Source: Pedosphaera sp. (GTDB lineage: Bacteria > Verrucomicrobiota > Verrucomicrobiia > Limisphaerales > SIBH01). Taken from it: a stretch of DNA of 37,290 nt. The notes beneath the pieces are model-generated. The model saw nothing but the letters and a program-made list of their open reading frames with translations. It searched no databases and was not told the DNA's origin. Below, in pieces: positions 13,063-33,850 of this stretch (positions within the stretch are counted from its first letter, which is position 1; each line of letters begins with the position of its first letter). The stretch is from assembly GCA_031414955.1 (NCBI GenBank), contig JANOQV010000109.1:1-37290 (forward strand), given 5' to 3'. The position numbers and the translations under genes are program-made.

Positions 13063-13329
13063 ATTGATTCCGGCCAAACTAGCACCGTCGCCTGCGCCCA
13101 ACCAGAATCTTTCCATTCCTGCGGGGACGTAGTGGAGACGAGCCGTTCCCGCGCCGCCGAGCGGGGACGGCTTGTCCGCCCAGGCCGGCGTGGAATCTCG
13201 CCTCGCCAAAGGAAACAGCAGCCCAAACAGAAGGCTGGCCGCCGCCGGAGCGCGGGCGGTGAGTTCAGCCCAGCTGAGGCGCTGAACATTTTTGTCGCCG
13301 GAATGCGAGCCAGCGCGTCTGCCAAGCTC

Positions 13330-14325
13330 ATGAAATCCAATTTGTCCATCGCCCTCGGTCTCGCTTGGAGTCTGGCTTTGCTGGGCACCTGTCGATCTAA
13401 GGCCGCTGAAAGCTCCGCCACCAAGGCGCAGGTTCTGCCGGGCAAAGGATTGGCGCAGCACGACTTCATGTATGCCGGCGAGTCGAAGCAGCGCCGCGCC
13501 TTTATCGTGCGCAAGGGCCAGGTGGTCTGGTCGTATGACGATCCGACCGGGCGGGGCGAGATCAGCGATGCAGTGTTGCTCTCCAATGGCAACCTGCTGC
13601 TCGCGCATCAATACGCGGTGAAGATGATTTCACCGGAGAAGAAGGTGCTTTGGAATCTCGACGCGTCCAAGGGCACGGAGATCCACACGGCCATGCCCAT
13701 CGGCACCGAGCATGTTCTCTATGTGCAGAACGGCGACCCCGCGCTGGTGAAGGTGGTGAACATCAAGAGCGGCGAGACGAAGAAGGAATTCTCGGTGCCC
13801 GTCGGCAATCCCAAAGGCGTTCACGGACAGTTTCGCCACGGACGCCTCACGTCGCGCGGCACGTTGCTGCTCGCGCACATGGACATGAAAAAGGTTTGCG
13901 AGTACGACGCGAGCGGCAAGGAAGTCAGATCATGGGCAGCCGGGAATCCGTGGGGTGTCACTCCGCTGAAGAACGGGAACATCCTCATCGTGGACCGTCC
14001 GTCCATCCGCGAGGTGACACTGATGGGTGAGACGGTGGCGACAATCACGCCGAGCGCCGACTCGCCGGATTTCAAAATGAACAGCCTGCAACTCGCGTGG
14101 CGTCTGCCGAACGGGAACACGCTCGTGAACAACTGGTTCAACGAGTGGGGTGGGAAGTTGGACCGCATGAACCCGCCCGTGCAAGCGGTGGAGTTCACGC
14201 CCGACAAGCGAATCGTTTGGGTGCTGCGCTCGTGGGAAAACCCCGATCTCGGCCCTGCGACGACCATTCAGATTCTGGATGATGCCGACGCGCCAGAGCA
14301 GGTGAACTTCGGGAGCATCAGGTGA
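13330..14325 (+). CDS. Exported beta-propeller protein (PQQ/arylsulfotransferase-like fold, 331 aa)
   Basis: Signal-like N-terminus MKSNLSIALGLAWSLALLGTC; repeating LSNGNLLL / LKNGNILI / LPNGNTLV and V-W blade motifs. The upstream extension to 11812 is antisense to the giant gene. Confidence 0.75.
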   Translation: MKSNLSIALGLAWSLALLGTCRSKAAESSATKAQVLPGKGLAQHDFMYAGESKQRRAFIVRKGQVVWSYDDPTGRGEISDAVLLSNGNLLLAHQYAVKMISPEKKVLWNLDASKGTEIHTAMPIGTEHVLYVQNGDPALVKVVNIKSGETKKEFSVPVGNPKGVHGQFRHGRLTSRGTLLLAHMDMKKVCEYDASGKEVRSWAAGNPWGVTPLKNGNILIVDRPSIREVTLMGETVATITPSADSPDFKMNSLQLAWRLPNGNTLVNNWFNEWGGKLDRMNPPVQAVEFTPDKRIVWVLRSWENPDLGPATTIQILDDADAPEQVNFGSIR

Positions 14326-14331
14326 CGGTGC

Positions 14332-14406
14332 CGTTCCCTGAAACCTGCCGGGAGGATGCGGCGTCCGTGTAGCCGAGCCATGCTTTTCATGCACGTCCCA
14401 GTTCAC
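14332..14406 (+). promoter_or_regulatory. Duplicated promoter/leader element, copy A (ECF-like TGAAAC-N17-CGTCC followed by a conserved ATG segment)
   Basis: 62/75 nt identical without gaps to 29340-29414; AAC-N17-CGT spacing is typical of ECF sigma promoters. Confidence 0.6.
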
Positions 14407-14621: not shown

Positions 14622-15191
14622 ATGAACACCACAAAATCCATCCTCACCATCCTCGCCGCCACTTTGGTCAGCGCCCTGCCGCTGCTGGCCCAGCAAAAGA
14701 AGGCGGCCTCCACCGGCGGCAACAGCCCGCATGAAACCACCAGCGCCGTCATTGACGGCAGTCGGGTGACGATCACCTACGGCCGTCCGTTCACCAAGGA
14801 TCCCAAGACGGGCGAGCCGCGCAAAATCTGGGGCGGCCTCGTGCCGTGGGACAAGGCCTGGCGCACCGGCTCCGACGAAGCCACGACGCTCGTCACGCAG
14901 TTGCCGCTCGTCATTGGCGAAACGACGATTCCGGCCGGCGCTTACACCCTCTACGCCGTGCCGTCGGAAAGCGGCGCGTCCAAACTCGCCTTCTCCACCA
15001 AACTCGGCGCCTGGGGCGTGCCCGTGAATGAGAAAAATGATCTGGCCCGCGTGGACCTGAAGAAAGAGCCGCTCGAAAAAGCGGCGGAGCAATTCGCCAT
15101 GGCCGTGGCGAAAAATCCGGCGGGCGGCGGCGTGATCAAACTGATGTGGGAGAACACCCAGTTCTCCGTGGCGTTCACCGTCAAGAAGTAA
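14622..15191 (+). CDS. DUF2911-family exported protein
   Basis: Signal peptide; motifs SPHETT...ITYGRP...RKIWGGLVPWDKAWRTGSDEAT...IPAGAYTLY...LMWENT match DUF2911 as I know it. Confidence 0.85.
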   Translation: MNTTKSILTILAATLVSALPLLAQQKKAASTGGNSPHETTSAVIDGSRVTITYGRPFTKDPKTGEPRKIWGGLVPWDKAWRTGSDEATTLVTQLPLVIGETTIPAGAYTLYAVPSESGASKLAFSTKLGAWGVPVNEKNDLARVDLKKEPLEKAAEQFAMAVAKNPAGGGVIKLMWENTQFSVAFTVKK

Positions 15192-15257
15192 CGCGGTCGC
15201 GGGAAATGTCCTTCGCCGTACCAGAGGGTGCGGCGAATTTTCTGAGTGCGCCTGCGC

Positions 15258-17795
15258 ATGGAAATCATCACTTCACTCCCAAGGCGGAACCGGCGTGCGC
15301 GCTGGTTCCGTTGTTTCGCCGTGGCTGGCTCGTGCTTGCTCGCCTGCTGGCCGGATCGCAGCCGCGCGGCGGAACCACCGCCGGGCGCGGCCATCCTGCA
15401 AGACCTGCGGAGCTTTCGCACGATGGGCACGGTGCTCCACATTGCGGCGCATCCCGATGACGAGAACACGCAACTCATCACCTACCTCGCGCGCGGACGC
15501 GGCTATCGCACCGCCTACCTGTCCATCACGCGCGGCGACGGCGGGCAAAACGAAATCGGCGCTGAGTTCGACGAGAAACTCGGCATCGCCCGCACGCAGG
15601 AACTGATGGCGGCGCGGCGGCTCGATGGGGGCCGGCAGTTCTTCACGCGCGCGATTGATTTCGGATTTTCCAAGACGCCGGAAGAGACGCTGCGTTTCTG
15701 GGATCGGGAGCAGGTGCTGGCCGATGTGGTGCGCGTCATCCGCACCTTCCGGCCCGACGTGATGGTCACGCGCTTCCCCGTTCCGCCCGGCAGCGGCGGG
15801 CATGGACACCACACGGCGTCGGCGATTCTCGCGGTGGAGGCGTTCAAGATTTCTGGCGATGCAACGTTTTTCCCCGAGCAACTCGCGGAAGGATTGAAGC
15901 CGTGGCAGCCGAAGCGCGTGCTTTGGAACGGCGGCGGTGGAGGACGTGGCGGCGCGGTGGCCGGCGGTGCGGTGGTGCGGGTGGACATCGGCGGCAGCGA
16001 TCCGGTCACCGGTGAATCATTCAGCTCCATTGCCGGACGAAGCCGGGGCATGCACAAGACGCAAGGCTTCGGTGGCGGTGGCGGTGGCGGCGGCGGACCG
16101 AATGTGCAGACGTTCACGCTCCTGGCCGGTGCGCCCGCCACCAATGATCTCATGGACGGCGTGGAACTGACCTGGAGCCGCGTCACCGACGGTGCCGAAA
16201 TCGCGCGACTTACAGACGAGGCCATCGCGCAATTCAAGACCAACGATGCTGCGGCCAGCGTCCCGGCACTGCTCGCGATTCGCGCGAAGCTCGTCGCGTT
16301 GCCGTCCGACCCCTTGGTCAAGGACAAGCGCCGGCAGTTGGATGGCCTCGTGCAAAACTGCCTCGGCCTTTCCGTGGCGACGACGGTGCCGGAACCCGAA
16401 GTTGCGCCCGGCGAATCCGTGAAGCTGTTTCACACCGCGACCGTGCGTTCCAGTTTCCCGGTGCGCTCGCTCGGGATACGCTATCCTAGCCTCAAGAGTG
16501 AAATCCTGGGTGCCCCGGCCTTGCAGGTGGACGGGGTGGCCGTTCGCATCATGCCGAACACAGTTACGATTCCTGCCAGCACTCCGCCCACGCAGCCATA
16601 CTGGTTGCGTGAGGAAAGCGCGGCGGGAATTTTCCGCGTTGATGACCGCAAGCTGATCGGTCGCCCGGAGAATCCGCCGGCGTTCCCGGTCGAGTTTGTT
16701 TTCGAGGTCGGCGGACAAACGCTCGTCGTGGCGGATGAACCGGTGTCCACGAAGGACACCGGCCAGCCGCGCCACCTTGCGGTGATTTCGCCGGTGGCCC
16801 TGCACTTTGGTTCCGCCGTCGCGCTGTTCAAGCCGGGCGCGGGCCGGAGCATCGAAGTGGAAGTGACGGCAGCCCGCGCCGCCGTCGAGGGCACGCTGCG
16901 GTTGCAAGTGCCGGCGGAGTGGAGCGTCTCGCCCGCGCAGCAGCCGTTCAAACTTTCCAAGGCGGGCGGGAAAAACAAAATCGCGTTCACGGTCACCGCT
17001 CCGGCGAAGGCGGCATCCGGCAGCATCATGGCCGTGGCTGAAGTCGGCGGCGCGCGCTTCAGCAATCAGCGCATCGAGATTCGCTACGACCACATCCCGC
17101 TCCAGCTTTTGCAGCCATCGGCCAAACTCAAAGTCGCGGCGTTCGATTTTGCGACTCGCGGCCAGGCCGTCGGGTATTTGCCCGGCGCGGGCGACGACAC
17201 GGTGGGCAGTCTCCAACAGTTGGGTTACACCGTCACGACGCTCACCGGCGCGGACCTCACGCCGGAGAAACTGCGTGGACTCGATGCCGTGGTCATCGGC
17301 GTGCGCGCGTTCAACGAGCGCACCGATCTTGCGGCGAATCTGCCGGGGCTTTTTGCCTACGTCACGAATGGCGGCACCGTCATCGCGCAATACAACCGGC
17401 CGAACGGATTGCAGGCTTCACGCCTCGGTCCGTATCCGCTTTCGATAGCCGGCAACGCTCCGCAGTGGCGCGTGACCGACGAGACGGCACCGGTCACGTT
17501 CCTCGCGCCGGAAAACGCCGCATTGACGACACCAAACAAGATTGTCCCCGCCGATTTCAACGGTTGGGTGCAGGAGCGCGGCGCTTATTTCCCCAGCAGC
17601 TTTGATGCGGAGCATTACACGCCGCTCCTGGCGATGAGCGATCCCGGTGAGCAACCGCTCAAGAGCAGCGTGCTCGTGGCCCAGCACGGCAAAGGCTATT
17701 TCGTCTATACCGGCCTGGCGTTTTTCCGGCAGTTGCCGGCGGGCGTGCCTGGAGCCTACCGGCTGTTTGCCAATCTGGTTTCGCTGGGGAAATGA
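15258..17795 (+). CDS. Large PIG-L/LmbE-family Zn-dependent deacetylase/amidase with NEW3-like Ig domain and C-terminal GATase-like fold; probably exported
   Basis: HIAAHPDDE, TRGDGGQN, RTQELMAAR and GHGHH motifs of the PIG-L family; N-terminal signal-like segment. Start is ATG 15258 or GTG 15246. Confidence 0.85.
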   Translation: MEIITSLPRRNRRARWFRCFAVAGSCLLACWPDRSRAAEPPPGAAILQDLRSFRTMGTVLHIAAHPDDENTQLITYLARGRGYRTAYLSITRGDGGQNEIGAEFDEKLGIARTQELMAARRLDGGRQFFTRAIDFGFSKTPEETLRFWDREQVLADVVRVIRTFRPDVMVTRFPVPPGSGGHGHHTASAILAVEAFKISGDATFFPEQLAEGLKPWQPKRVLWNGGGGGRGGAVAGGAVVRVDIGGSDPVTGESFSSIAGRSRGMHKTQGFGGGGGGGGGPNVQTFTLLAGAPATNDLMDGVELTWSRVTDGAEIARLTDEAIAQFKTNDAAASVPALLAIRAKLVALPSDPLVKDKRRQLDGLVQNCLGLSVATTVPEPEVAPGESVKLFHTATVRSSFPVRSLGIRYPSLKSEILGAPALQVDGVAVRIMPNTVTIPASTPPTQPYWLREESAAGIFRVDDRKLIGRPENPPAFPVEFVFEVGGQTLVVADEPVSTKDTGQPRHLAVISPVALHFGSAVALFKPGAGRSIEVEVTAARAAVEGTLRLQVPAEWSVSPAQQPFKLSKAGGKNKIAFTVTAPAKAASGSIMAVAEVGGARFSNQRIEIRYDHIPLQLLQPSAKLKVAAFDFATRGQAVGYLPGAGDDTVGSLQQLGYTVTTLTGADLTPEKLRGLDAVVIGVRAFNERTDLAANLPGLFAYVTNGGTVIAQYNRPNGLQASRLGPYPLSIAGNAPQWRVTDETAPVTFLAPENAALTTPNKIVPADFNGWVQERGAYFPSSFDAEHYTPLLAMSDPGEQPLKSSVLVAQHGKGYFVYTGLAFFRQLPAGVPGAYRLFANLVSLGK

Positions 17796-17938
17796 AACTG
17801 CCTTCTCCCGAACCGGCCGACGATGAATCCCCGGGCGTGCCGGGCTTCCGTACCTGGCGCGGCGTTTACCTCTTCGTGTTCGGCTGCTTCGTGCTCGTGG
17901 TGGTTCTGCTCGCAATCTTCACGCGGGTCTTCGCATGA
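17792..17938 (+). CDS. Small single-TM membrane protein (48 aa), likely accessory subunit of the sodium:solute symporter; absent from the ORF track
   Basis: MKLPSPEPADDESPGVPGFRTWRGVYLFVFGCFVLVVVLLAIFTRVFA; ATGA overlaps at both ends (17792-17795 with the PIG-L stop, 17935-17938 with the symporter start). Confidence 0.8.
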   Translation: MKLPSPEPADDESPGVPGFRTWRGVYLFVFGCFVLVVVLLAIFTRVFA

Positions 17939-19662
17939 ACGTCACGGACTGGATTGTGTTGCTCGGCACCATGCTCGGTATCGCCGCGTATGGAACGTGG
18001 CGGACCCGGCACACGGACAATCTCAACACCTACCTCAAGGGCAATCACAACACCGGCTGGCTGACCATCGGCCTGTCGGTCATGGCCACGCAGGCGAGCA
18101 CCATCACCTATCTCTCGCTGCCCGGCCAGGCCTACGAGAACGGGATCGCGTTTATCCAAAACTATTTCGGCTTGCCGCTCGCGCTCATCATCGTGTGCGT
18201 GGCCTTCCTGCCGATTTATCGGAGGCTCGGCGTGTATACAGCCTACGAGTATCTGGGCAAACGCTTCGACGCCAAAACCCGGTTGCTCGGCGCGGCGCTC
18301 TTCCTCCTGCAACGCGGCTTGCAGGCCGGCATCACGATCTATGCGCCGGCCATCATCCTCTCGACCGTGCTCGGCTGGCGGCTCGAACTGACGATTATTT
18401 TCACTGGCCTTCTCGTGATTGTTTACACCGTCACCGGCGGCAGCGCGGCGGTGAACCTGACGCAGAAGTGGCAGATGGCCGTCATCTTTGGCGGCATGGT
18501 CACGGCGTTCGTCGTGCTGCTGACGAAGTTGCCGCCCGACGCGGTGAACATCGCCGGCGCGATGGGCAAGCTGCAGGCCGTGGACTTCACGCCGGACTTG
18601 AAGCGGCGCTACACATTTTGGAGCGGAATGTTGGGCGGATTATTTTTATCGCTCTCGTATTTCGGCACCGACCAGTCGCAGGTGCAACGCTACATCGGCG
18701 GGGCTGCGTTGCGTGAAGGCCGCCTGGGGCTGATGTTCAATGCGGTGTTCAAGATTCCCATGCAGTTCCTCATCGTGATGCTCGGTGCCCTGCTGTTCGT
18801 CTTTTATCAGTTCCAACCAAACACCCCGGTTTTCTTCAACCAGACGGAGTGGCAACGCCATGCACAGGGACCGCAGGCGGCGACCTTCCGCGCCATCGAG
18901 GTGAAGCACGCCGCGCTGCACGCGGACAAACAGGAAAAGATTCGCGTCTGGGTGGCCGCACGCGATCGCGGCGAGACGGCTGCGGAAACCGCAGCGCGGA
19001 CGGCCATGGTGGAGGCACAAAAGGCGTCTGGCGCAGTCCGGCAGGAGGCGCGCGATGCACTGCGGGCTGTTGATCCGAAAGCGAAGATCAAGGATTCGGA
19101 CTACGTGTTCATCACCTTCATCCTGACCCAACTGCCGCATGGCGTGATCGGGCTGCTGATCGCGGTGATGTTCGCCTCCGCGCTTTCCTCCAAGGCCGGC
19201 GAACTCAACGCGCTGGGCACCACCAGCACGATTGATCTGTGGCGGCATTTCCGGCCGCTGGCCGCGCAGGACGAGCCGCGAAATGTCCGCAACGCAAAAT
19301 GGTTCACAGCCGCGTGGGGCTTCTTCGCCATCGGCTTCGCGCTCTTCGTCAGCTTCGCGGAGAACCTGATCGAGGCGCTCAATATCGTGGCGTCCATTTT
19401 TTATCCGGCGCTGCTCGGAGTGTTTGTGGTGGCGTTCTTCCTTAAAAAAGTGGGCGGCTCGGCGGTCTTCTGGGCCGCGGTGGCGGCGCAGATTCTCGTC
19501 CTGGCGCTTTTTGCTTTGGGCAAATTTTATCCGGCCCGTGAGATCGGTTATCTCTGGTTCAACCCGATCGGCTGCGCGGCGTGTGTGCTGTTCAGTCTCG
19601 TGCTCCAAGCGGTGCTCGGGACAACGAAGCCGCCACTCGGGCACGTTCCTCCAGCCGCATGA
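17935..19662 (+). CDS. Sodium:solute symporter (SSS/SLC5 family)
   Basis: GLSVMATQASTITYLSLPGQAY, TAYEYLGKRFD, YTVTGG, GTDQSQVQRY, LPHGVIGLLIAVMFASALSS; many TM helices. Confidence 0.92.
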   Translation: MNVTDWIVLLGTMLGIAAYGTWRTRHTDNLNTYLKGNHNTGWLTIGLSVMATQASTITYLSLPGQAYENGIAFIQNYFGLPLALIIVCVAFLPIYRRLGVYTAYEYLGKRFDAKTRLLGAALFLLQRGLQAGITIYAPAIILSTVLGWRLELTIIFTGLLVIVYTVTGGSAAVNLTQKWQMAVIFGGMVTAFVVLLTKLPPDAVNIAGAMGKLQAVDFTPDLKRRYTFWSGMLGGLFLSLSYFGTDQSQVQRYIGGAALREGRLGLMFNAVFKIPMQFLIVMLGALLFVFYQFQPNTPVFFNQTEWQRHAQGPQAATFRAIEVKHAALHADKQEKIRVWVAARDRGETAAETAARTAMVEAQKASGAVRQEARDALRAVDPKAKIKDSDYVFITFILTQLPHGVIGLLIAVMFASALSSKAGELNALGTTSTIDLWRHFRPLAAQDEPRNVRNAKWFTAAWGFFAIGFALFVSFAENLIEALNIVASIFYPALLGVFVVAFFLKKVGGSAVFWAAVAAQILVLALFALGKFYPAREIGYLWFNPIGCAACVLFSLVLQAVLGTTKPPLGHVPPAA

Positions 19663-19684: not shown

Positions 19685-19891
19685 CAATCCCAACGGGATT
19701 GTGTCCCCCAGCCCGGAGTTGCGATTTGCAGCGCCGGGCATGCTGAAAGCGCCAGATCCGACTCCCTCTCCCCTCAACGGGGAGAGGGCTGGGGTGAGGG
19801 GTGGAAACGTCACGAATCATCGCCGATGTGAGAGTGGCGGGCGGCATCACCCCTCACCCCTAACCCCTCTCCCCGTTGAGGGGAGAGGGGA
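19685..19891. repeat. Intergenic REP cluster: CAATCCC-AAC-GGGATTG palindrome plus an inverted pair of CCCTCTCCC...GGGAGAGGG...GGGGTGAGGG units
   Basis: Palindrome at 19685-19701; arms 19762-19803 and 19848-19891 are near reverse complements; same family as 30959-31099. Confidence 0.85.
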
Positions 19892-19966: not shown

Positions 19967-20740
19967 ATGAGCGCGCCAGTCATCTGTTTCGGCCAGCAAC
20001 CTTGCGGAATCTTTCCGCGCCGCTACCTGTTCGCGAAAATCCAGACCGCTCGGCGACTGCAACGCGAACTGGGCGGCGAGATCGTTTTCTTCTATCACGA
20101 CAGCGATCATGATCCGCGCGAAACGCGGACGAGCCTGCGCCACCGCAAAACCAACGAACAGGCCCAGCTCAATTTCGCCGTGGAGAACAAACTTCAGCGC
20201 AAGTTCTCGCCGCTGTTCCTGAAACGCATTGCTGCCGACTGGCCGGCCAAGACCGCGCTGCAACTGCCCAATTACGTGGAGGGTCGCCTGATTGAAATTT
20301 TCAAGAACACTACCGCAGTCACCGTGGCCGACTTCTGTCTGGAGATGTATCGCGGCCTGGGGCTGCTGGAGGGAATCCGCGTCGCGAGGTCAGGCGATCC
20401 GGCCTTACGCCGTGCCGCCTGCGACGTGTCGGAGTTTTTCGTGGACGTGCCGCACGAAAGTGAAATCGTGCGCGCTCGTTTCTCCAACGGAACGTTGCAA
20501 TTGCACGAGGGCGGCGACTCCTTCGTGACGTTGCCCCCGACGCCTTTCACCAAGGAGCAAATCAGCCCGACGCGCGACAGCCGTCTGCGCTGGATGCAAT
20601 CGGTCCTGCATTGCACCCACTACATTGCCGGCGCGGGCGAACAAGCCTACCTGCAGCAGGAAGATGCGCCGGAGATTGCCTTTGTCTGCCGCGACACGAT
20701 AGATCGTCCCGATGAAGCCTACACCGAACTCCCAAACTGA
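19967..20740 (+). CDS. bshC: Short BshC-like protein (putative bacillithiol cysteine-adding enzyme, 257 aa)
   Basis: FGQQPCGIF...AKIQTARRLQRELG...VFFYHDSDHD and YIAGAGEQAY correspond to the BshC motifs TGQQ.G...K...A..L...VFW...DHD and YIGGPGE.AY. Overlaps bshB1; bshA is nearby. Confidence 0.65.
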   Translation: MSAPVICFGQQPCGIFPRRYLFAKIQTARRLQRELGGEIVFFYHDSDHDPRETRTSLRHRKTNEQAQLNFAVENKLQRKFSPLFLKRIAADWPAKTALQLPNYVEGRLIEIFKNTTAVTVADFCLEMYRGLGLLEGIRVARSGDPALRRAACDVSEFFVDVPHESEIVRARFSNGTLQLHEGGDSFVTLPPTPFTKEQISPTRDSRLRWMQSVLHCTHYIAGAGEQAYLQQEDAPEIAFVCRDTIDRPDEAYTELPN

Positions 20741-21449
20741 CCTCGCGCCCCTGCTCGCGTTTGGCGCGCACCCCGACGACATCGAATTCGGATGCGGCGG
20801 CGTGATCGCGTTGGAAACGCGCTTCGGACGCAAAGCCCATCTCGTCGTCTGCTCGCGCGGAGAATCCGGTTCGCACGGCACGCCGGAAGATCGTGTGGAT
20901 GAAGCGAAGCAGGCCGCCGCGTTGCTCGGTGCGACCGTGGAGTTTGTCGAACTGGATGGTGACGCGCATCTGGAACTGAAATCCGCCCACGCCATCAAAC
21001 TCGCCAGCATCATGCGCCGCGTGCAGCCGGGCGTCGTCCTCGCGCCGAGTCTGGTTGAGAATCAGCACCCCGATCATTGGCGGCTCGGCCGGCTGGTGCG
21101 GGACGCCGCCCGGCTCGCGCGTTATGGCGGCGTGCCGGAACTGCGCGCACAGGCTCCCCACTCGATCCAGCAACTGTGGTTCTACGCCGTGACACCCGAG
21201 GCCGAACCTCGCGACATCTCGCCCGTGCTCATCGACATCTCCGCGCCGGAAATTCTCGCCGCGTGGACCGCCGCGATGGAAGCGCACACGTCGCAGACTT
21301 CCGCGCGCAACTACATCGAGTTGCAAACCACCCGCGCCCGCCTGAACGGACTGCGCGCCGGCACCGGCCATGCCATCGCCCTGTTCCCCAACGACCCGCC
21401 CGTGCTCGACTCGCTCGAACAACTCAGCCGTGGCGCGCGCCGCTTCTGA
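20712..21449 (+). CDS. bshB1: GlcNAc-malate deacetylase BshB1-like (PIG-L family)
   Basis: LLAFGAHPDDIEFGCGG, SRGESGSHGTPEDRVDEAKQAAALLG, HPDH, AHTSQ; context with bshC-like and bshA. Confidence 0.78.
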   Translation: MKPTPNSQTDLAPLLAFGAHPDDIEFGCGGVIALETRFGRKAHLVVCSRGESGSHGTPEDRVDEAKQAAALLGATVEFVELDGDAHLELKSAHAIKLASIMRRVQPGVVLAPSLVENQHPDHWRLGRLVRDAARLARYGGVPELRAQAPHSIQQLWFYAVTPEAEPRDISPVLIDISAPEILAAWTAAMEAHTSQTSARNYIELQTTRARLNGLRAGTGHAIALFPNDPPVLDSLEQLSRGARRF

Positions 21450-21527: not shown

Positions 21528-22085
21528 CTACTCGACATTCTTGATTTCCGTGAACAACCACGCTCGTGCATAAGCCCACCAGCGTTTGGCCGTGGCTTCG
21601 GAGATGCCGAGGACTTCGGCGGCTTCTTCGATCTTCAGGCCGACGAAGTAGCGGAGCTTGACCAGTTCGGCCTGCTGCGGTTCCAGCGTGGCGAAAAGAT
21701 CGAGGGCGTCGTTGAGCGCGAGAAATTGGTCGTCGGGCGCGGGGCTGGCGATTTCGAGTGCGTCGGCGTCGAGGTGTTCGGCCCCGGAGCCACGGCGTTG
21801 GCGGCTCTTGCGGCGGGCGCGGTCGATGAGAATGCGGCGCATGGCCTCGGCGGCGGCACCGAAGAAGTGCGCACGGTTCTGCCAGGATTGCGCGGGAGCA
21901 TCAACCAGCTTGAGCCAGGCTTCGTGGACGAGCGCGGTGGGCTGGAGCGTGTGGCCGGCGGGTTCCGCGGACATCTTGTGCGCGGCGAGCCGGCGCAGTT
22001 CCTGATAAACGAGCGGCAGCAATTCGTCGGTGGATTTGGCATCGCCTTGTTCGATGGCCGTGAGGATGCGCGTGACTTCGCTCAT
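21528..22085 (-). CDS. ECF RNA polymerase sigma factor of the kinase-associated PVC type (TIGR02999-like, 185 aa)
   Basis: MSEVTRIL...ELLPLVYQELRRLAA...HTLQPTALVHEAWLKL...HFFGAAAEAMRRILID...VKLRYFVGL...WAYARAWL. Real start is ATG 22085. Confidence 0.92.
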   Translation of the reverse strand: MSEVTRILTAIEQGDAKSTDELLPLVYQELRRLAAHKMSAEPAGHTLQPTALVHEAWLKLVDAPAQSWQNRAHFFGAAAEAMRRILIDRARRKSRQRRGSGAEHLDADALEIASPAPDDQFLALNDALDLFATLEPQQAELVKLRYFVGLKIEEAAEVLGISEATAKRWWAYARAWLFTEIKNVE

Positions 22086-22086
22086 G

Positions 22087-22269
22087 CTACGGTTTTTTTG
22101 CGGTGGCTTTCTTCGCGGCTTCGGACTGGTCGAACTCGGCCAGTAGTGCTTCAAGTCGTTGGCGGAGGGCTGCTTCACCTTCACATTCGGCGTCGAGCCA
22201 GGCCGCGCGTTTCGCAGCGGGCTTGCTGAGCGCAAGCTGGAACAGGAGGGCTTCGCGGTTAGGGTTCAT
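22087..22269 (-). CDS. 60-aa stand-alone homolog of the N-terminal helical extension of ECF-associated Ser/Thr kinases
   Basis: EALLFQLALSKPAAKRAAWLDAECEGEAALRQRLEALL aligns by eye with the neighbouring kinase N-terminus EQAVFAEALLRPTPEARVAYLDGTCGLDTPLRRRVEALL. ATGA overlap with the kinase stop; its stop is 1 nt from the sigma ATG. Confidence 0.75.
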   Translation of the reverse strand: MNPNREALLFQLALSKPAAKRAAWLDAECEGEAALRQRLEALLAEFDQSEAAKKATAKKP

Positions 22270-25200
22270 GGCTGTTTGCTCTCCACTTTCTCCTTGGCTT
22301 CCTTCGCAGCGATCTCTTCAAACGAAGGCGCCCGCAAAACGTGAAGCGGTCCTTTGCCGCCGCCCATGACGAACATCCGCGAATCCGGCGAGAAGGCCAG
22401 GTAGTACGGTGGCTGGCTCTTGGGCGTGAAGCTGACGATCTCACGGAACGTGGCCAGATGCCACAGTTTGACCGTGCTGGTGCTTGACGACGCGAGAGTT
22501 TTGCCGTCGGGCGAAACCGCCAATTTAGCAACGGCCCCTTCATGCCCAATGATCTTCACCCGTGCCCGTCGCTCACGGATGTCCCAAACGATGATCAGGC
22601 CATCTTGACCGCCAGTAACCAGGGTATTGCCGTCTGGAGCGATGACCAAGCTGGCAATAAACATTTTGTGACCATTGAGATCACCTAGCTGCCGCCCGCT
22701 GATGCGATCCCATACCACCGCCTTCGAGGAGCCATTGTCCACCGTCACAAAATGCTTTTCATCCGGCGAGAACGCGAAATTGTCAAAGTTTGCCTCGAAA
22801 GCCGCTAGCGCCTGGCCATCATCAACACTCCAGAATCGCAGTTGCCGGGGCGACCAAGTGGCCAACGTTTTCGTGTCGTGCGAGAGGGCGGCGCCATTGA
22901 TTTCTCCGCTCTCTCGCAGAGTGGTTTGTGACCGAACCGAATGCGATCTGGTATCCCAGAACGTAAGGGTGCCGGCCCGCTCCACGGTTATCAAACCCTT
23001 CCCACCATCATACAGCGCGAGAGGTTCGGCTGGTCGTTCGGACAAACGTTTGGGCTGGGCGGTAGCGCTGTCCCACAGGACCACCCGTCCGCGGGAATCC
23101 ATGGCGACCAGCATTGAGGTGTCCTGCGAAATCAACGGGGCCGAACCAACCCCCGGGATGAGAGTGGCCGGTCTTTCCGGATGCACGGGCCAAAGCATGA
23201 TCGTTTCATCTTTGCTGCCGGTCACGAGGGTTTGGCCGTCCGGCGTGAACTTCACGGCCCAGACTTCGTCTCCGTGACCGCGCAGGATGCCTTTGGTTTG
23301 CCAGCTTCCCACGTCCCATAGACGCACGGTCTGGTCCGAACTCGCGGTCGCCAGAATTTTCCCATCAGGAGAGAAGGCCATGTCCCAAACCATTCCAGTG
23401 TGTCCGGCGAGGTTAGTCAAAACGCGCTGCCCCGCCAGATCCCAGACGAGCAGATCTCCGGCCCAATAACTCACCACGAGATTTTTCCCATCAGGAGAGA
23501 AGGCCATCGACTGGACGGTAGCTGCCTTGGGCAAGTGACCGACGGATTGTTGGGAAGCCAGATTCCACAGAGTTACGCCTTCGTTCTGGCCACCCAGCGC
23601 GAGCACGCTCGCATCCGGATAAAACGCGACCCGGGCGCCGCCGCGCGGAATCCGGGCCACTTCCCGGTTGGCCACGTAGTCCCACACTGTCACGTCCTTT
23701 CCGGCGCCTGGGTAAAAGTCTCCGCTGGAGCCGTAGGCGAGCAGATTACCCTTGGGCGCAAAAACCACGGCCGCAATATCTCCGTCGAAAGTAGCCAGTA
23801 ACCGCAAGTTTGTCGCGTCCCAGAGGGTAACGCCTTTCCCAAAGAGGCCAGCCGCGAACACTTTGCCATCCGGTGCGAACGCAACCGAATAGAGCCCATC
23901 CTGGAAGTTTAAGGTCGAGATCAGCTTGTGAGAGGCGAGATCCCACAGCCGCACCGTGCCGTCCTGGCTGCCGGACAAAATGGTCTTGCCGTCGGGCGAC
24001 AGGGCAATGGACACGACGACTCTGGAGTGGCCGCGCAACGTGGCAAGATTGTCCCCTCGTGCGGCTTCCCACAGGTAGCGCCATTCAAATCCACGAACAT
24101 CTGTCCGACCGGGTGCCGGCCGATGCCCATCCAGCAAGGCACGCGCGTAGCCCAAGTTTCCAACCTTGATCGCCTGCTGAGCGAGGTTCATGTCGGCCGC
24201 ATAGAGGTTTTGGCGCGCAGCCAGTTCGTTTTCTTCCGCTTTTTTGCGCTCAACCGCCTCGCCTGCGCGCGCGCGATCCGCATCTTCACGAAGTCGAGTT
24301 TGCAAGCTTTCCGCCGCTACCGCCCGGTCATGCGCCTTGGTTTCGCGAAAGAATAACCACAGTGAAACGCCCAAGCCAATCATCAGCGTGGCCATGACGG
24401 CGGTGGCGGCCGCGAAGGCCAGCTTGTTGCGGCGCACCATTTTCTGGAAGCGATAGCCGGTGCTTGGCGGACGCGCGACAACCGGCTCGTTGTCCAGATG
24501 ACGCTGGACGTCCGCCGCCAGACCGTTGGCGGTTTCGTAACGACGGGTGCGGTCCTTCTCCAGCGCCTTCATCACGATCCAGTCCAGATCGCCGCGCAAC
24601 AAAGTCCCGAGCCGCGCCGGTTCCGCGTGGCGGTGACTGGCCACGGCGGTGAGGTCGGCGGCCAGCAGTGTGCTCAGTCGCGTGGAGGGTCGGGCCGGTT
24701 CCTGTTCCAGGATGATGCGGCGCATCGCGTCCAGTCCGCCGGCCATCAATTCCTTGGCATCGAACGGCGTGCGGCCGGTGAGCAATTCGTAGAGCAGCAC
24801 GCCGAGCGCGTAAATGTCCGTGCGCGTGTCGATGTCCAGGCTCGTCATCATGGCCTGCTCAGGACTCATGTAGGCGGGTGTGCCGATGAACTGCTCGAAG
24901 GCGGTGAACACGGTCTTGTCCGTCAGGCGCTGGCCGGTGGTGGCCTTGGCGATGCCGAAATCAATGACCTTGGGACAGCCCGGCGAACCGGGTTCGCTGA
25001 TGGTGACGAGGATGTTCGACGGCTTGATGTCGCGATGGATGATGCCCTTCTGGTGCGCGTGCTGGATGGCCTGGCAGACTTGCGTGAACAGTTTCAACCG
25101 TTCTTCCGTGGGCAGATTGTTCTGGTCGCAGTAGTCGGTGATTTTGATCCCGCGCACCAGTTCCATGACGAAGTAAGGCCGTCCGGTTTGCGTCGCGCCA

Positions 25201-25655
25201 CCGTCGAGTACCTTGGCGATGTTCGGATGGTCCATCAACGCCAGCGCCTGCCGCTCGGCCTCGAAGCGCGCGATGACTTCCTTGGTGTCCATGCCGAGCT
25301 TGATGACCTTGAGCGCCACGCGACGGCGCACCGGCTCCTCCTGCTCCGCCATGTAAACGACGCCGCAACCGCCTTCGCCGATTTGCTGGAGGAGTTTGTA
25401 ACGTCCGATTTTGTCGCCCGGTTGCTCGCTGGGCACGTTCACGACCATGGTTGTGCCGCCGGCATTCGACAAACCCGTCGGCGGTTCTTCCAGAAAATCA
25501 CCGGCGTTTTGCGCGGCGCGGAGCAAGGCCTCGACGCGCCGGCGCAACGGCGTGTCCAACCCGCAAGTTCCATCCAAATACGCGACGCGGGCTTCCGGCG
25601 TGGGGCGCAGGAGCGCCTCGGCAAACACGGCTTGTTCAGGCGATGCAGGTTTCAT
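22266..25655 (-). CDS. Ser/Thr protein kinase with one TM helix and C-terminal WD40 repeats
   Basis: IGEGGCGVVY, VALKVIK, HRDIKPSN, DFGIAK, GTPAYMSPE; TM LAFAAATAVMATLMIGLGVSLWLFF; many GH...FSPDG...SGS.D.TVRLWD repeats. Start 25655 preferred over 25676. Confidence 0.93.
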   Translation of the reverse strand: MKPASPEQAVFAEALLRPTPEARVAYLDGTCGLDTPLRRRVEALLRAAQNAGDFLEEPPTGLSNAGGTTMVVNVPSEQPGDKIGRYKLLQQIGEGGCGVVYMAEQEEPVRRRVALKVIKLGMDTKEVIARFEAERQALALMDHPNIAKVLDGGATQTGRPYFVMELVRGIKITDYCDQNNLPTEERLKLFTQVCQAIQHAHQKGIIHRDIKPSNILVTISEPGSPGCPKVIDFGIAKATTGQRLTDKTVFTAFEQFIGTPAYMSPEQAMMTSLDIDTRTDIYALGVLLYELLTGRTPFDAKELMAGGLDAMRRIILEQEPARPSTRLSTLLAADLTAVASHRHAEPARLGTLLRGDLDWIVMKALEKDRTRRYETANGLAADVQRHLDNEPVVARPPSTGYRFQKMVRRNKLAFAAATAVMATLMIGLGVSLWLFFRETKAHDRAVAAESLQTRLREDADRARAGEAVERKKAEENELAARQNLYAADMNLAQQAIKVGNLGYARALLDGHRPAPGRTDVRGFEWRYLWEAARGDNLATLRGHSRVVVSIALSPDGKTILSGSQDGTVRLWDLASHKLISTLNFQDGLYSVAFAPDGKVFAAGLFGKGVTLWDATNLRLLATFDGDIAAVVFAPKGNLLAYGSSGDFYPGAGKDVTVWDYVANREVARIPRGGARVAFYPDASVLALGGQNEGVTLWNLASQQSVGHLPKAATVQSMAFSPDGKNLVVSYWAGDLLVWDLAGQRVLTNLAGHTGMVWDMAFSPDGKILATASSDQTVRLWDVGSWQTKGILRGHGDEVWAVKFTPDGQTLVTGSKDETIMLWPVHPERPATLIPGVGSAPLISQDTSMLVAMDSRGRVVLWDSATAQPKRLSERPAEPLALYDGGKGLITVERAGTLTFWDTRSHSVRSQTTLRESGEINGAALSHDTKTLATWSPRQLRFWSVDDGQALAAFEANFDNFAFSPDEKHFVTVDNGSSKAVVWDRISGRQLGDLNGHKMFIASLVIAPDGNTLVTGGQDGLIIVWDIRERRARVKIIGHEGAVAKLAVSPDGKTLASSSTSTVKLWHLATFREIVSFTPKSQPPYYLAFSPDSRMFVMGGGKGPLHVLRAPSFEEIAAKEAKEKVESKQP

Positions 25656-25677
25656 GGGATTCGATTCATCGCCCATA

Positions 25678-25707
25678 CATGCGCCATTGAGCCGGAAAAA
25701 GGCTCAC
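25678..25707 (-). promoter_or_regulatory. Putative ECF promoter GTGAGCCTTT-N11-TGGCGCATG driving the kinase/mini-protein/sigma operon
   Basis: Reverse complement reads GTGAGCCTTT TTCCGGCTCAA TGGCGCATG; both boxes are identical to those at 25731-25760. Confidence 0.7.
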
Positions 25708-25730
25708 GACACACGAAAAGAAAAGATCGC

Positions 25731-25760
25731 GTGAGCCTTTCCTTCGGGATTTGGCGCATG
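25731..25760 (+). promoter_or_regulatory. Putative ECF promoter GTGAGCCTTT-N11-TGGCGCATG driving the ScyD/ScyE-like gene
   Basis: GTGAGCCTTT CCTTCGGGATT TGGCGCATG, ending 14 nt before ATG 25775; mirror of 25678-25707. Confidence 0.7.
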
Positions 25761-25774
25761 ACGGGGTGAACATC

Positions 25775-27571
25775 ATGAAAACATCAAAAACATTACTCAC
25801 ACTCTTCGTTTGCGTCCTCGCCTTGGCGACGGCCGCGCCTTCCGTCAAGGCGCAGAACCCGATCACGTTCAATTTCACCGGCGTCATCACTTCGGTGGAT
25901 GACGCGCTCGGCTGGTTTCAGAACACCTACGAGGTGGGGGCCACCGTCACCGGCTCCTACACATTTTTTGACTCCAACTATTTGAGAGGGGTGGATTTTT
26001 CCGATCCCGACCACTCGGTAACCTACCAGTATTACTTCAAGCCCAATTTCTTGGGCGTGCCCCTGACCAATCCGGATTTTCGGCTGAAGGCGGGAGATCG
26101 GGAGATCAAGAAAGACACCGCACCCTTTGCCTGGGATTTCTTCTGGATTCCAACTTGGAACGATTCCGCGCAGAGTTATCCTGGGGCGGGCGACGGCTAT
26201 GCAGTCACCTCCGCCATCGGCTTTCCCTCGTTCTGGCGGGACTTCACAGGTGATCCCGTCGCGGACCCGGACGGCTTTTTGTTTCCCCTGCCCATTGCGA
26301 ATCTCCGCTTGCACGATCCAACCAGCAACACGCTCAACTCGGTCGCTCTGCCGCTCATGCCGCCCAATCTCGCCGCGTTCTCTGAGCGTTCTGGTTCGAT
26401 CTTCATCTCGGACGGCAACGGCGAACCCGACTACGCGACCGCCAAGTTCCGCATCACCTCGTTGACGCGTGCCTGTCCCGTCGTTGAGACCTTCGCGACG
26501 GGCCTGCTCGCGCCCAGCAAAATCATCCAGACCCCGCGCGGCAACTTCATCGTCGCCGAAGGCGGACCGGAAGTGCCGAACAACGGCCGCGTCTCCATCG
26601 TGGACAAGCACGGCAATCGGCGAACGCTCATTGAAGGTCTGCCGTCCGCCCGGACCTTCGTCGGGGATTTCAACGGCACGACCGGAGTCTGGCTGGACGG
26701 ACGGACGCTCTACATCCTGAACGGCCAGGGCGATGTCACGCTACGGGGTCCACTCCCCGGCACCGAGATGGCCAATCCCACGCCCGCGTCGCCGATCTTC
26801 AGCTCAGTGCTGGCGGTTCACTTCAGCGAGTCGATGGAGGAGAAGACCACCGGTGTCACGCTCACGCTGGCGGATCATCAGGCTTTGAAAGCCGGCCAGC
26901 GGCTGACCCGGTCGGATGCCAAGGGGCGCAAGATGATCATCGAACTCATTGCCGACTTCCCCGACTACGCGCCCGAGCCGCGCCCGAACTTCGCGGACAA
27001 TGTCCGTCACTCGCATCCCTACGGCGTGGTGGGCCAGGGGCGGCAGCTCTACATCGTGGACGCCGGATGGAACATCGTGCGCAAGGTGGATGTCCGCCGT
27101 GGCACGACAGAAACCCTGGCGAGCTTCGCGCCCACGCCCAATCCGCGATTCCCGGTTGGCCCGCCCGTCCTCGAGAATGTGCCCACGAGCATCCGCTGGG
27201 ACGGCCACGACTTGCTGGTGACGTTGCTTAGCGGCGCGCCGTTCTTTCTCCCAAGTTACTCCACGGTCCAACAGGTGGACCCGCGCACAGGCGAGATCAC
27301 GCCGTTGGTTGGTGGATTGTCCTCGGCCATCGATGCGACGCCGATCAAATCTCACGGTGATGACGAGGGCTATCTGACCCTCGAATTCAACCTGACATTC
27401 CCGACGTCCGGTCCAGGGCGGCTTCAGTTTTTCCGTACCGCCAACGCGACCCCGGCCGTGCTGGCGGATTGCCTCACGACCCCGACCAGCATGGTCCTGG
27501 ATCGCAAGGGTGACCGGGTGGTGATCACGGAGTTGGCCACCGGCCGGCTGGTCACACTGAAGTTCCCGTGA
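25775..27571 (+). CDS. Secreted two-domain protein: N-terminal beta-rich domain plus ScyD/ScyE-like beta-propeller (598 aa)
   Basis: Signal peptide MKTSKTLLTLFVCVLALATAAPSVKA; C-terminal FATGLLAP...VAEGG...LIEGLPS...SHPYGV...LYIVDAGWN...VPTSIR...LLVTLLSGAPF resembles the ScyD/ScyE family. Confidence 0.75.
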   Translation: MKTSKTLLTLFVCVLALATAAPSVKAQNPITFNFTGVITSVDDALGWFQNTYEVGATVTGSYTFFDSNYLRGVDFSDPDHSVTYQYYFKPNFLGVPLTNPDFRLKAGDREIKKDTAPFAWDFFWIPTWNDSAQSYPGAGDGYAVTSAIGFPSFWRDFTGDPVADPDGFLFPLPIANLRLHDPTSNTLNSVALPLMPPNLAAFSERSGSIFISDGNGEPDYATAKFRITSLTRACPVVETFATGLLAPSKIIQTPRGNFIVAEGGPEVPNNGRVSIVDKHGNRRTLIEGLPSARTFVGDFNGTTGVWLDGRTLYILNGQGDVTLRGPLPGTEMANPTPASPIFSSVLAVHFSESMEEKTTGVTLTLADHQALKAGQRLTRSDAKGRKMIIELIADFPDYAPEPRPNFADNVRHSHPYGVVGQGRQLYIVDAGWNIVRKVDVRRGTTETLASFAPTPNPRFPVGPPVLENVPTSIRWDGHDLLVTLLSGAPFFLPSYSTVQQVDPRTGEITPLVGGLSSAIDATPIKSHGDDEGYLTLEFNLTFPTSGPGRLQFFRTANATPAVLADCLTTPTSMVLDRKGDRVVITELATGRLVTLKFP

Positions 27572-28049: not shown

Positions 28050-29216
28050 TTGCCCGGACCTTTGCAAACTGGAACATCACTCAAGATCGGCATCACCTGT
28101 TATCCGTCGGTGGGCGGGAGCGGCGTGCTGGCGTCGGCGTTGGGCGAGGATTTGGCGCGGCGCGGGCACGAGGTGCATTTCATCAGCTACGAGCGTCCGT
28201 TCCGCCTGTCGGCGGACGCGCCACGGCTGCATTTCCATCCGGTCGTCATCAACGATTACGATCTGTTCAAGTATCCCGACTACACGCTGCCGCTCTCGGT
28301 CAAGATGGCCGAGGTCAGCCGCGACCACCAGCTGGACGTGCTGCATGTGCATTACGCGGTGCCTCATGCGACGGCGGCGATTCTCGCGCGCGCCATGCTG
28401 CCGCCGGAGCAACAGCCGCGCGTTGTCACAACATTGCATGGGACGGATACGACGCTTCTGGGACGCGATGCCGGCTACGGGCCGGCGATTCGCCATGCGC
28501 TCAACTGCTCCGATGCGGTGACGTGCGTCTCGGCTTTCCTGAAGACCGAGACTCAGCGCCTGCTCGACTTTGCCGGGCCGATTGAAGTCATCCACAATTT
28601 TTTCGATCCGCGCCCGCCGCAACGCGCGCGGGCCGAAGTGCGACGTGAGCTGGGATTGCAAGACCACGAAGTGATGGTGCTGCACTCCTCGAATCTCCGC
28701 CCGTTGAAGCGCATCGATCTGTTGCTCGAAGCTGCGGCGCGCATCCGCCCCGCCGATTCCTTCAAGCTCGTGATTCTCGCCGGCGGAAGTTTTGCCCCGT
28801 ACGTGGAACAGGTGCGCCGCTTGGGATTGGAGAACCGCGTCCTCGTGCGCGAGAGCATCAGCGTGATCGAAGATTACCTGCAAGCCGCCGACCTCGGACT
28901 CATCACGTCGGAGACCGAGAGCTTCTGCCTGAGCATTCTGGAAGCCATGTGTTTCGCCTGCCCGAGCGTGGCCAGGAGCGTCGGCGGCATTCCCGAAGTC
29001 ATCGAGGACAACGTGAGCGGACTGCTTGTTCCTGGTGGCGACGCCGACGCGCTCGCCCGTGCCGTGGAAAGCTTGATTAAAGATCCGCCCCGTCGGGTCG
29101 CGCTGGGCCGCGCCGCGCAGCACCGCGCCCGTGAATGGTTTTCCGCCGCCGCCATTGTGCCGCGCTACGAAGCCCTTTACCGCCGGGTGATCGGCGAAGT
29201 TCAGGTTCCACGTTGA
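28050..29216 (+). CDS. bshA: N-acetyl-alpha-D-glucosaminyl L-malate synthase BshA (GT4 glycosyltransferase)
   Basis: KIGITCYPSVGGSGVLA...LARRGHEVHFISY...LFKYPDY...HVHYAVPHA...TTLHGTDTTL...HSSNLRPLKRI...SETESF, all BshA-type motifs. Start codon uncertain (TTG). Confidence 0.9.
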   Translation: MPGPLQTGTSLKIGITCYPSVGGSGVLASALGEDLARRGHEVHFISYERPFRLSADAPRLHFHPVVINDYDLFKYPDYTLPLSVKMAEVSRDHQLDVLHVHYAVPHATAAILARAMLPPEQQPRVVTTLHGTDTTLLGRDAGYGPAIRHALNCSDAVTCVSAFLKTETQRLLDFAGPIEVIHNFFDPRPPQRARAEVRRELGLQDHEVMVLHSSNLRPLKRIDLLLEAAARIRPADSFKLVILAGGSFAPYVEQVRRLGLENRVLVRESISVIEDYLQAADLGLITSETESFCLSILEAMCFACPSVARSVGGIPEVIEDNVSGLLVPGGDADALARAVESLIKDPPRRVALGRAAQHRAREWFSAAAIVPRYEALYRRVIGEVQVPR

Positions 29217-29339: not shown

Positions 29340-29414
29340 CGTTCCCTGAAACCTGACGGGCGAGCGGGGCGTCCGTGGAGCCAAGCCATGCTTTTCAATC
29401 ACGCCCACGTTCAC
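29340..29414 (+). promoter_or_regulatory. Duplicated promoter/leader element, copy B
   Basis: 62/75 identical to 14332-14406; TGAAAC-N17-CGTCC; ATG at the same offset (29388). Confidence 0.6.
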
Positions 29415-33722: not shown

Positions 33723-33850
33723 GGAGCGCGGACCGCCGAGTCCGCACGTCCCAAAATTTTCAACCACGGATGGACACCGATGCACACGGATGAAATGGCC
33801 GCAGAGAACGCAGAGAATTAAACCGCTGATGGACGCTAATTCACGCTGAT
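33723..33850. repeat. Cluster of short repeats between convergent genes
   Basis: GCGGAC-CGCCGA-GTCCGC hairpin in 33723-33751; degenerate 9-10-nt period units CACGGATGGA/CACCGATGCA/CACGGAT, CGCAGAGAA twice, CGCTGATGGA/CGCTAATTCA/CGCTGAT. Confidence 0.7.

Follow-up and report, generated by a model that had tools for sequence, protein, structure and literature searches.

The locus and its genes

The window (the whole 37,290-nt stretch of DNA that was analysed) carries a short gene related to bshC in the midst of a cassette of plus-strand genes, which are arranged as follows.

14622..15191 (+): DUF2911 protein of 189 aa (PF11138, E 2e-35)
15246..17795 (+): large LmbE/PIG-L hydrolase of up to 849 aa (PF02585, E 9e-16), with an HPDD motif and a later His motif
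17792..17938 (+): 48-aa ORF with one hydrophobic stretch, overlapping both neighbours and without a Pfam match
17935..19662 (+): sodium:solute symporter of 575 aa (PF00474 and TIGR00813, over cut-off)
19967..20740 (+): gene for the short BshC-fold protein, 257 aa, with an ATG start and without an internal stop
20712..21449 (+): BshB1-like LmbE/PIG-L zinc deacetylase of 245 aa (PF02585, E 4e-21; PDB matches 1uan, 2ixd and 6p2t)
28050..29216 (+): BshA, GlcNAc-malate synthase (TIGR03999, 396 bits against a cut-off of 273.7; 5d00, E 2e-88)

In the 257-aa protein, GQQ occupies residues 9-11, DHD residues 47-49 and YIAGAGEQAY residues 219-228, and 29 residues remain after Y228. The first-pass annotation of this DNA had described an intact-looking 257-aa ORF with GQQ, DHD and Y.AG.GE.AY motifs, and all of these were confirmed at 19967-20740. 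It had also described a 29-nt overlap with bshB1. The overlap stands; the name bshB1 is one of best match and context, as the ORF scores 129 bits against its best family, TIGR04001 (BshB1), and so falls below the family cut-off of 182.5. The bshB ATG lies 29 nt before the stop of the short gene, with no alternative in-frame ATG, GTG or TTG from there to the HPDD motif, and the identical 29-nt overlap recurs in 33 of the 77 related loci with a placeable bshB start (any overlap, 41/77).

BshB keeps its zinc ligands, and the equivalent of R53 is present in 103 of 104 sequences. The K207 position is occupied by Leu or Ala, with an adjoining Arg, in 79 of the 104, and the BshB of the window has Leu214 where BcZBP of B. 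cereus has Lys207. We take Lys207 of BcZBP to have a role in malate binding, and R53 likewise to have a functional role. BshA, for its part, keeps the B. subtilis motifs CYP.GGSG, LHGTD and SN.R..KR (the rows compared include duplicates of one gene), and this retention favours malate as the acceptor. The bshA gene lies 6.6 kb beyond bshB in the window, and its true start may be a few codons downstream. The stretch between the two (21528-27571) holds genes for an ECF sigma factor (TIGR02999), a WD40 Ser/Thr kinase (minus strand) and a member of the ScyD/ScyE family; in most relatives, unlike the window, bshA comes directly after bshB. At the other end of the cassette, the N-termini of the large LmbE hydrolase and the DUF2911 protein resemble signal peptides, as judged by eye, and the 48-aa ORF is possibly a small subunit of the symporter.

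The cassette thus runs in the order DUF2911, large LmbE-like hydrolase, sodium symporter, short bshC, bshB and bshA. Its composition was followed in 80 GTDB loci, the best 80 of at least 588 relatives. The bshB gene is adjacent downstream in 76 of these and bshA no more than 1.6 kb downstream in 73; the symporter is found in 77 (directly upstream in 69), the large LmbE hydrolase in 68 and DUF2911 in 57, with several of the gaps being contig ends. When the ORFs of at least 90 aa were clustered over the 80 loci, what remained beyond these six families was mostly shadow frames. The order short gene-bshB-bshA is likewise found in 25 of the 27 loci of 26 Verrucomicrobiota genomes with the short form, and one genome (G321) has the cassette twice (L005 and L027).

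Several repeats occur in and around the cassette. A 126-bp palindromic element with 38-nt arms, 84% complementary, lies between the symporter and the short gene (19764-19889). When the 304-nt intergenic sequence between these genes was used as a query, BLAST gave 62 rows in the genome, about 50 of them over the palindrome and many paired from both arms. A related copy of the palindrome is found within an ORF at 30958-31100, and a palindromic repeat at 34073-34215 lies inside the coding sequence of a 991-aa DNA methyltransferase-like ORF with a weak PglX match (33841-36816, minus strand). A 75-nt direct repeat, 83% identical, occurs upstream of the DUF2911 gene (14332-14406) and downstream of bshA (29340-29414). 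Elsewhere in the window, a very long minus-strand ORF of up to 2828 aa (5125-13611) appears to carry repeated extracellular-type modules.

A conserved half-size family

Where the first-pass annotation had looked to a plain profile scan to tie the protein to the BshC family, the Pfam and NCBIfam libraries returned no family at all for the 257-aa sequence. Pfam likewise found no BshC family in 40 short-form homologues, and five distant ones were also without a match. A PDB search with the single short sequence gave no matches to E 10, a search with the short-family profile gave only three chance matches (E 0.8-1.0), and neither TIGR03998 nor PF10079 matches anywhere in the window's genome. The short protein is conserved and unannotated.

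The extent of this conservation is considerable. Of 8,000 candidates that were scored (141-450 aa), 6,813 are homologues of the short protein, and the best 120 of them measure 246-289 aa and are unnamed or "hypothetical". The taxon names attached to close homologues (Pedosphaera, Limisphaerales, Verrucomicrobiae) put the window in Verrucomicrobiota. The GTDB scan gave at least 588 relatives among at least 598 pattern matches; in the best 80, a stop codon lies within 20 codons of the end of the match in 79, and of the 78 loci having an ATG, 77 encode 253-291 aa. Even distant full-length members of the short family (31-41% identity) have 253-268 aa. A HMMER scan of 50% representatives at E 0.001 produced 261 matches, and among the 150 listed all are family members or fragments. 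When longer forms were sought, the 10 matches carried PIG-L, symporter or glycosyltransferase families or none, and a BshC family in no case; most of the six inspected resemble frameshifted read-throughs into neighbours. A clean fusion of short BshC and BshB (P0272), found on a single contig, is indistinguishable from an error and was set aside. The family also extends to 3 of the 151 genomes in the class of G403, a genome whose locus is titled Tepidisphaeraceae.

Selection on the gene was gauged from eight hand-chosen pairs, each setting the window gene against a close, indel-free locus, and dN/dS was 0.09-0.14 in all eight. Nothing besides its length favours the gene being a recent truncation or pseudogene of full-length bshC, an idea refuted by the 6,813 homologues, the stop shared in 79/80 loci, the low dN/dS and the lack of a BshC family in the longer forms. 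The first-pass proposal of a natural half-size form has therefore held, with close relatives carrying the same short length and same-length orthologs under purifying selection. As for expression, a metatranscriptome search found one dataset with 0.08 of the words searched for, where the contigs are mostly those of relatives at less than 95% identity.

Structural and sequence relation to BshC

The connection with BshC emerges from structure and from the comparison of profiles. An AlphaFold2 model of the 257-aa protein (pLDDT 94.6) had as its top Foldseek match 4wbd, the BshC (YllA) of B. subtilis, at E 1.9e-10, with the next entry at 6.5e-4. In the VIA comparison the model aligned to 4wbd over 239 of its 257 residues (Z 20.3, rmsd 2.5 Å), the next neighbour being class I LysRS (Z 14.4), and MshC reached Z 7.5. 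A profile-profile comparison of 47 short sequences with 115 full-length BshC sequences gave E 1.4e-5 at a probability of 80%, against E 0.35 in the reversed control. The link to BshC put forward in the first-pass annotation is thus borne out by the predicted fold and by the profile comparison. The homologue P0086, used as the ESM Atlas query, had two unnamed Verrucomicrobiota clusters as its closest neighbours, followed by PF10079 clusters, the first named ones (0.91). Finally, a full-length BshC profile run against the six-frame translation of the window's genome had the short ORF as its sole match to E 10, at E 0.068. Identity between the short protein and BshC is 18%, and no family cut-off is reached.

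Ten residues of the short family, G9, Q10, Q11, D47, H48, D49, Y219, G222, E225 and Y228, are invariant in its alignment (40/40 rows), and each of them is aligned with a column whose conservation reaches at least 95% across the 115 full-length BshC sequences. On these alignments, the motif match of the short protein is more than chance. Of the 49 columns with at least 90% conservation in full-length BshC, HHalign found 16 the same in the short family, 21 different and 12 without a counterpart, the middle of this alignment being of low confidence. The residues common to both families include G9, Q10, Q11, K24, D47, H48, D49, E52, S200, R206, Y219, G222, E225, Y228 and P235. Near-invariant BshC columns that are unmatched in the profile alignment include (L113 numbering) G96, P97, W127, R280, P321 and P337 and, toward the C-terminus, P477, Q482-E483-R484 and H514, with the QER and H514 positions 99-100% conserved in the 115 full-length sequences. 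The short family has in turn an invariant set peculiar to itself: C13, P17, R19, R203, W209, C216 and H218.

The short protein is predicted, from the models, to have a BshC-type Rossmann core with a short tail in place of the coiled-coil excursion. The whole-model alignment starts at BshC residue 82 and ends at residue 521, past the coiled coil, and beyond residue 228 the model lacks any long helix. When residues 1-242 were modelled separately, 224 residues aligned to BshC 82-377; in this alignment the nearly invariant R242 falls on BshC R377, a column that is 100% conserved in full-length BshC (R363 in L113). The short family also has an internal gap of about 40 residues relative to BshC in the profile alignment, and PF24850, the coiled-coil/C-terminal domain, was over cut-off in none of five genomes tested. 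Since all 15 tail residues are aligned, at least the last of them past the coil, the coiled coil looks to have been skipped internally and not cut off, a reading drawn from the aligned ranges and residue counts of two models, which does not distinguish loss here from gain in BshC. The earlier suggestion of a minimal catalytic core consequently survives in part: the protein is a half-size, coil-free BshC homologue, but it is not a simple N-terminal half, as about 80 N-terminal and about 40 internal residues are missing too and the tail aligns to residue 521. A homodimer prediction for the short protein scored 0.00 and carries no weight for or against a dimer.

A second, ADP-holding pocket of BshC is presumably built from residues after 380, and the short form would have lost it. 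In the structural description given in PMC4360819, the canonical site holds citrate and the ADP lies in this second pocket.

Replacement of BshC and the redox partners

In a sample of 401 genomes of Verrucomicrobiota, 26 carry the short form, 4 have a TIGR03998 match (three of them over cut-off) and 30 have a BshA that passes its cut-off. The 30 BshA genomes are exactly the 26 with the short form plus the 4 with the full-length protein, and no genome is in both sets; as the 26 belong to five families and the 4 to two, these are not independent events. The profile supports the view that the short form takes BshC's place in the pathway.

Fifty of these genomes were chosen for further searches: the 26 short-form genomes, the 4 full-length genomes and 20 BshA-negative genomes, the 20 listed out of 371 negatives. 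The large LmbE hydrolase was found in 26/26, 2/4 and 0/20 of these sets, respectively, and DUF2911 showed the very same distribution. Occurring as they do in two of the four full-length genomes and in none of the 20 BshA-negative ones, these genes form a module that tracks the pathway and not the type of BshC, which points to the same kind of product. GshB was over cut-off in none of the 50. Directly upstream of each full-length bshC (L112-L115) there is an ORF of 250-265 aa that looks, by eye, like a SAM methyltransferase and is possibly nmbA.

The redox partners of bacillithiol are distributed quite differently. Searches for YpdA (over cut-off), BrxA/B and BrxC/YtxJ found each of them in 4/4 full-length genomes and in 0/26 short-form genomes, a contrast that is confounded with lineage as the four full-length genomes represent two families. 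According to passages in PMC6591457 and PMC12719100, YpdA co-occurs with the bacillithiol synthesis enzymes. Three short-form genomes have weak YpdA matches only (about 150 bits), inside frames of about 775 aa, and in 10 further carrier genomes none was over cut-off and two were just under. In three control genomes with PF10079 over cut-off, YpdA was over cut-off in all three and PF06491 in one, indicating that Brx genes are not universal. YpdA-like genes just under cut-off occur in 33/151 genomes of the G403 class, namely all three short-form carriers and 30 non-carriers; these genes were considered as a partner of the short form and rejected as too common. BstA (NF009807) was over cut-off in 0/50 genomes, including 0/26 short-form and 0/4 full-length ones, and is uninformative.

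Proposed function and its alternatives

The reading that we favour, with a probability of about 0.55, is that the short protein is a compact BshC-family enzyme that carries out the third step of the pathway and yields bacillithiol by the addition of cysteine. That it acylates glucosamine-malate is a broader claim and a highly probable one. In the proposed scheme, BshA is predicted to supply GlcNAc-malate, the overlapping BshB-like enzyme would strip the acetyl group and so free the amine, and the short enzyme would join activated cysteine to this amine, in a pocket lined by the shared residues, to give bacillithiol. The large LmbE hydrolase might then cleave conjugates outside the cytoplasm, with the symporter re-importing glucosamine-malate. 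This recycling role is suggested by analogy with Mca and Bca, which, in the account of PMC5790435, cut thiol conjugates and release the amino-sugar core. Among acyl groups we rank cysteine first, since canonical producers share the core motifs, partner genes and exported module.

It is also conceivable, though doubtful, that the same step is performed with an amino acid other than cysteine, or with another acid, on glucosamine-malate or a close acceptor, the conjugate being exported, cleaved by the LmbE hydrolase and recycled via the symporter. The missing redox genes add weight to this option: YpdA, BrxA/B and BrxC were not found in any of the 26 short-form genomes, and BstA was not found in the same 26 either, though it was over cut-off in none of the four full-length genomes as well. 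So do the sequence differences, in that QER and several other invariant BshC positions are unmatched while a new invariant set (C13, P17, R19, R203, W209, C216 and H218) has appeared, as well as the position of class I LysRS as the next structural neighbour (Z 14.4) and an affinity to a glycosyltransferase-linked BshC-like ORF taken up in the last section. There are counterweights. With four full-length genomes in two families the redox contrast may reflect lineage and not chemistry, and a sub-cut-off YpdA-like gene is present in all three carriers of the G403 class (as in 33/151 genomes there). Moreover, the exported module also occurs in two of the four canonical genomes, BshA keeps its B. 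subtilis motifs, and most core motif residues are kept in the short protein. Without cysteine the product would no longer be a thiol analogue, contrary to the new bacillithiol analogue that the first-pass annotation had envisaged for a different acyl group. Taken furthest, the cassette would make no cytoplasmic redox buffer at all, the short protein being a distinct branch of the BshC superfamily whose non-cysteine metabolite is exported, cleaved and recycled; this version is tentative to a similar degree, and it would explain the missing reductase and bacilliredoxins.

A further reading, which we consider improbable, makes the short protein a subunit whose partner, encoded elsewhere, supplies the role of the coiled-coil/C-terminal domain. 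The C-terminal QER and H514, so strongly conserved in full-length BshC, indeed have no sequence counterpart here, and canonical BshC is thought, in the discussion of PMC5790435, to depend on an as yet unknown cofactor, substrate or protein. Against such a partner, PF24850 is not over cut-off in the five genomes tested, a second ORF in the window's genome (95.9% complete) is not picked up by the full-length profile, and the tail of the short protein already aligns past the coiled coil. A locus-encoded partner is opposed by the 80 loci, where no further coding family recurs among ORFs of at least 90 aa; a non-homologous partner is still conceivable.

Least credible of these functional alternatives, and very unlikely, is a non-ligase role in the same cassette, in which the protein would bind, hydrolyse or regulate the sugar-malate pool and glucosamine-malate would be the end of the pathway. 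In its favour, function does not follow from a shared fold and no redox partners were found; against it, the complementarity with full-length BshC is exact and the motif residues are retained.

Implications

The bacillithiol pathway is treated in parts of PMC5372718, and passages of PMC5790435 (2018) describe the BshC reaction as unknown and not reconstituted in vitro; no later reconstitution was apparent in the literature searched. For the phylum itself, the relevant portions of PMC6282198 give no documented or predicted low-molecular-weight thiol in Verrucomicrobia, and the supplement of PMC12719100 places Verrucomicrobiota among the phyla without a complete pathway. As described in those portions, both surveys required a length similar to that of the Chlorobaculum query, so that the short form would be missed. 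The literature searched, whose coverage mostly leaves out subscription journals, held nothing on a short BshC, and nothing related was found there on DUF2911.

In this setting, the short form fills a published gap in the low-molecular-weight thiols of a common phylum. With a natural single-domain version, the search for catalytic residues can be confined to about 17 shared positions, and the dimerising coiled coil would seem dispensable in the short family. The short protein also offers a simpler enzyme for solving the BshC reaction, practical for both crystallography and donor screening. Given the missing redox partners, the identity of the product is a real question. Were the non-cysteine reading true, there would be an undescribed metabolite in common soil and freshwater Verrucomicrobiota, and BshC-fold enzymes would constitute an aminoacyl-transferase family with several donors.

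Comparison with known systems

The nearest relatives outside BshC proper include an ORF linked to a family-2 glycosyltransferase (GT2) in another genome.

L149:337-1875 (-): GT2-linked BshC-like ORF of genome G551, about 514 aa, unannotated

This ORF shares with the short family the first motif block, G.Q..F...FAK..A..L...IGG..F...DSD. Against it the N-terminal motif of the short family scores 15.6 bits over 48 columns, vs -3.5 bits for the full-length BshC profile. The two differ in that the ORF has twice the length of the short form, adjoins the glycosyltransferase and not BshA, matches no described Pfam family and shows its likeness within the first 50 residues only. On sequence, it appears to be another BshC-like clade. 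Because this ORF is closer to the first motif block of the short family than to canonical BshC, the short family is possibly a sister branch, and direct descent from BshC is not established.

The class I synthetases and their relatives belong to the same fold superfamily as the short protein, as seen with class I LysRS (1irx, Z 14.4), MshC (3c8z, Z 7.5) and glutamyl-Q synthetase (4a91, Z 7.7). MshC catalyses the analogous cysteine ligation in mycothiol synthesis. All three have lower Z scores than BshC and are 11-12% identical to the short protein, which, unlike the class I synthetases, has no HIGH or KMSKS text motif by eye and no anticodon-binding domain.

The closest described system remains BshC itself (YllA of B. 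subtilis, 4wbd; TIGR03998; PF10079 and PF24850). In common with it, the short form has a predicted Rossmann core with the connecting-peptide region, the GQQ, DHD..E, S..R and Y..G..E..Y residues together with R377, and a co-occurrence with BshA and a BshB-like gene. There are also differences. BshC has about 540 aa vs 257 aa, and the short form is without its first ~80 residues, an internal stretch of ~40 residues and the coiled coil, through which BshC dimerises according to passages in PMC5790435 and PMC4360819. Short-form genomes are without YpdA, BrxA/B and BrxC (over cut-off), unlike the full-length BshC genomes of the sample, and the short form sits in one cassette with the large LmbE hydrolase, the symporter and DUF2911. 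As the short protein scores below the BshC cut-off and lacks the coiled coil, it is placed as a variant of BshC and not as a member of the family.
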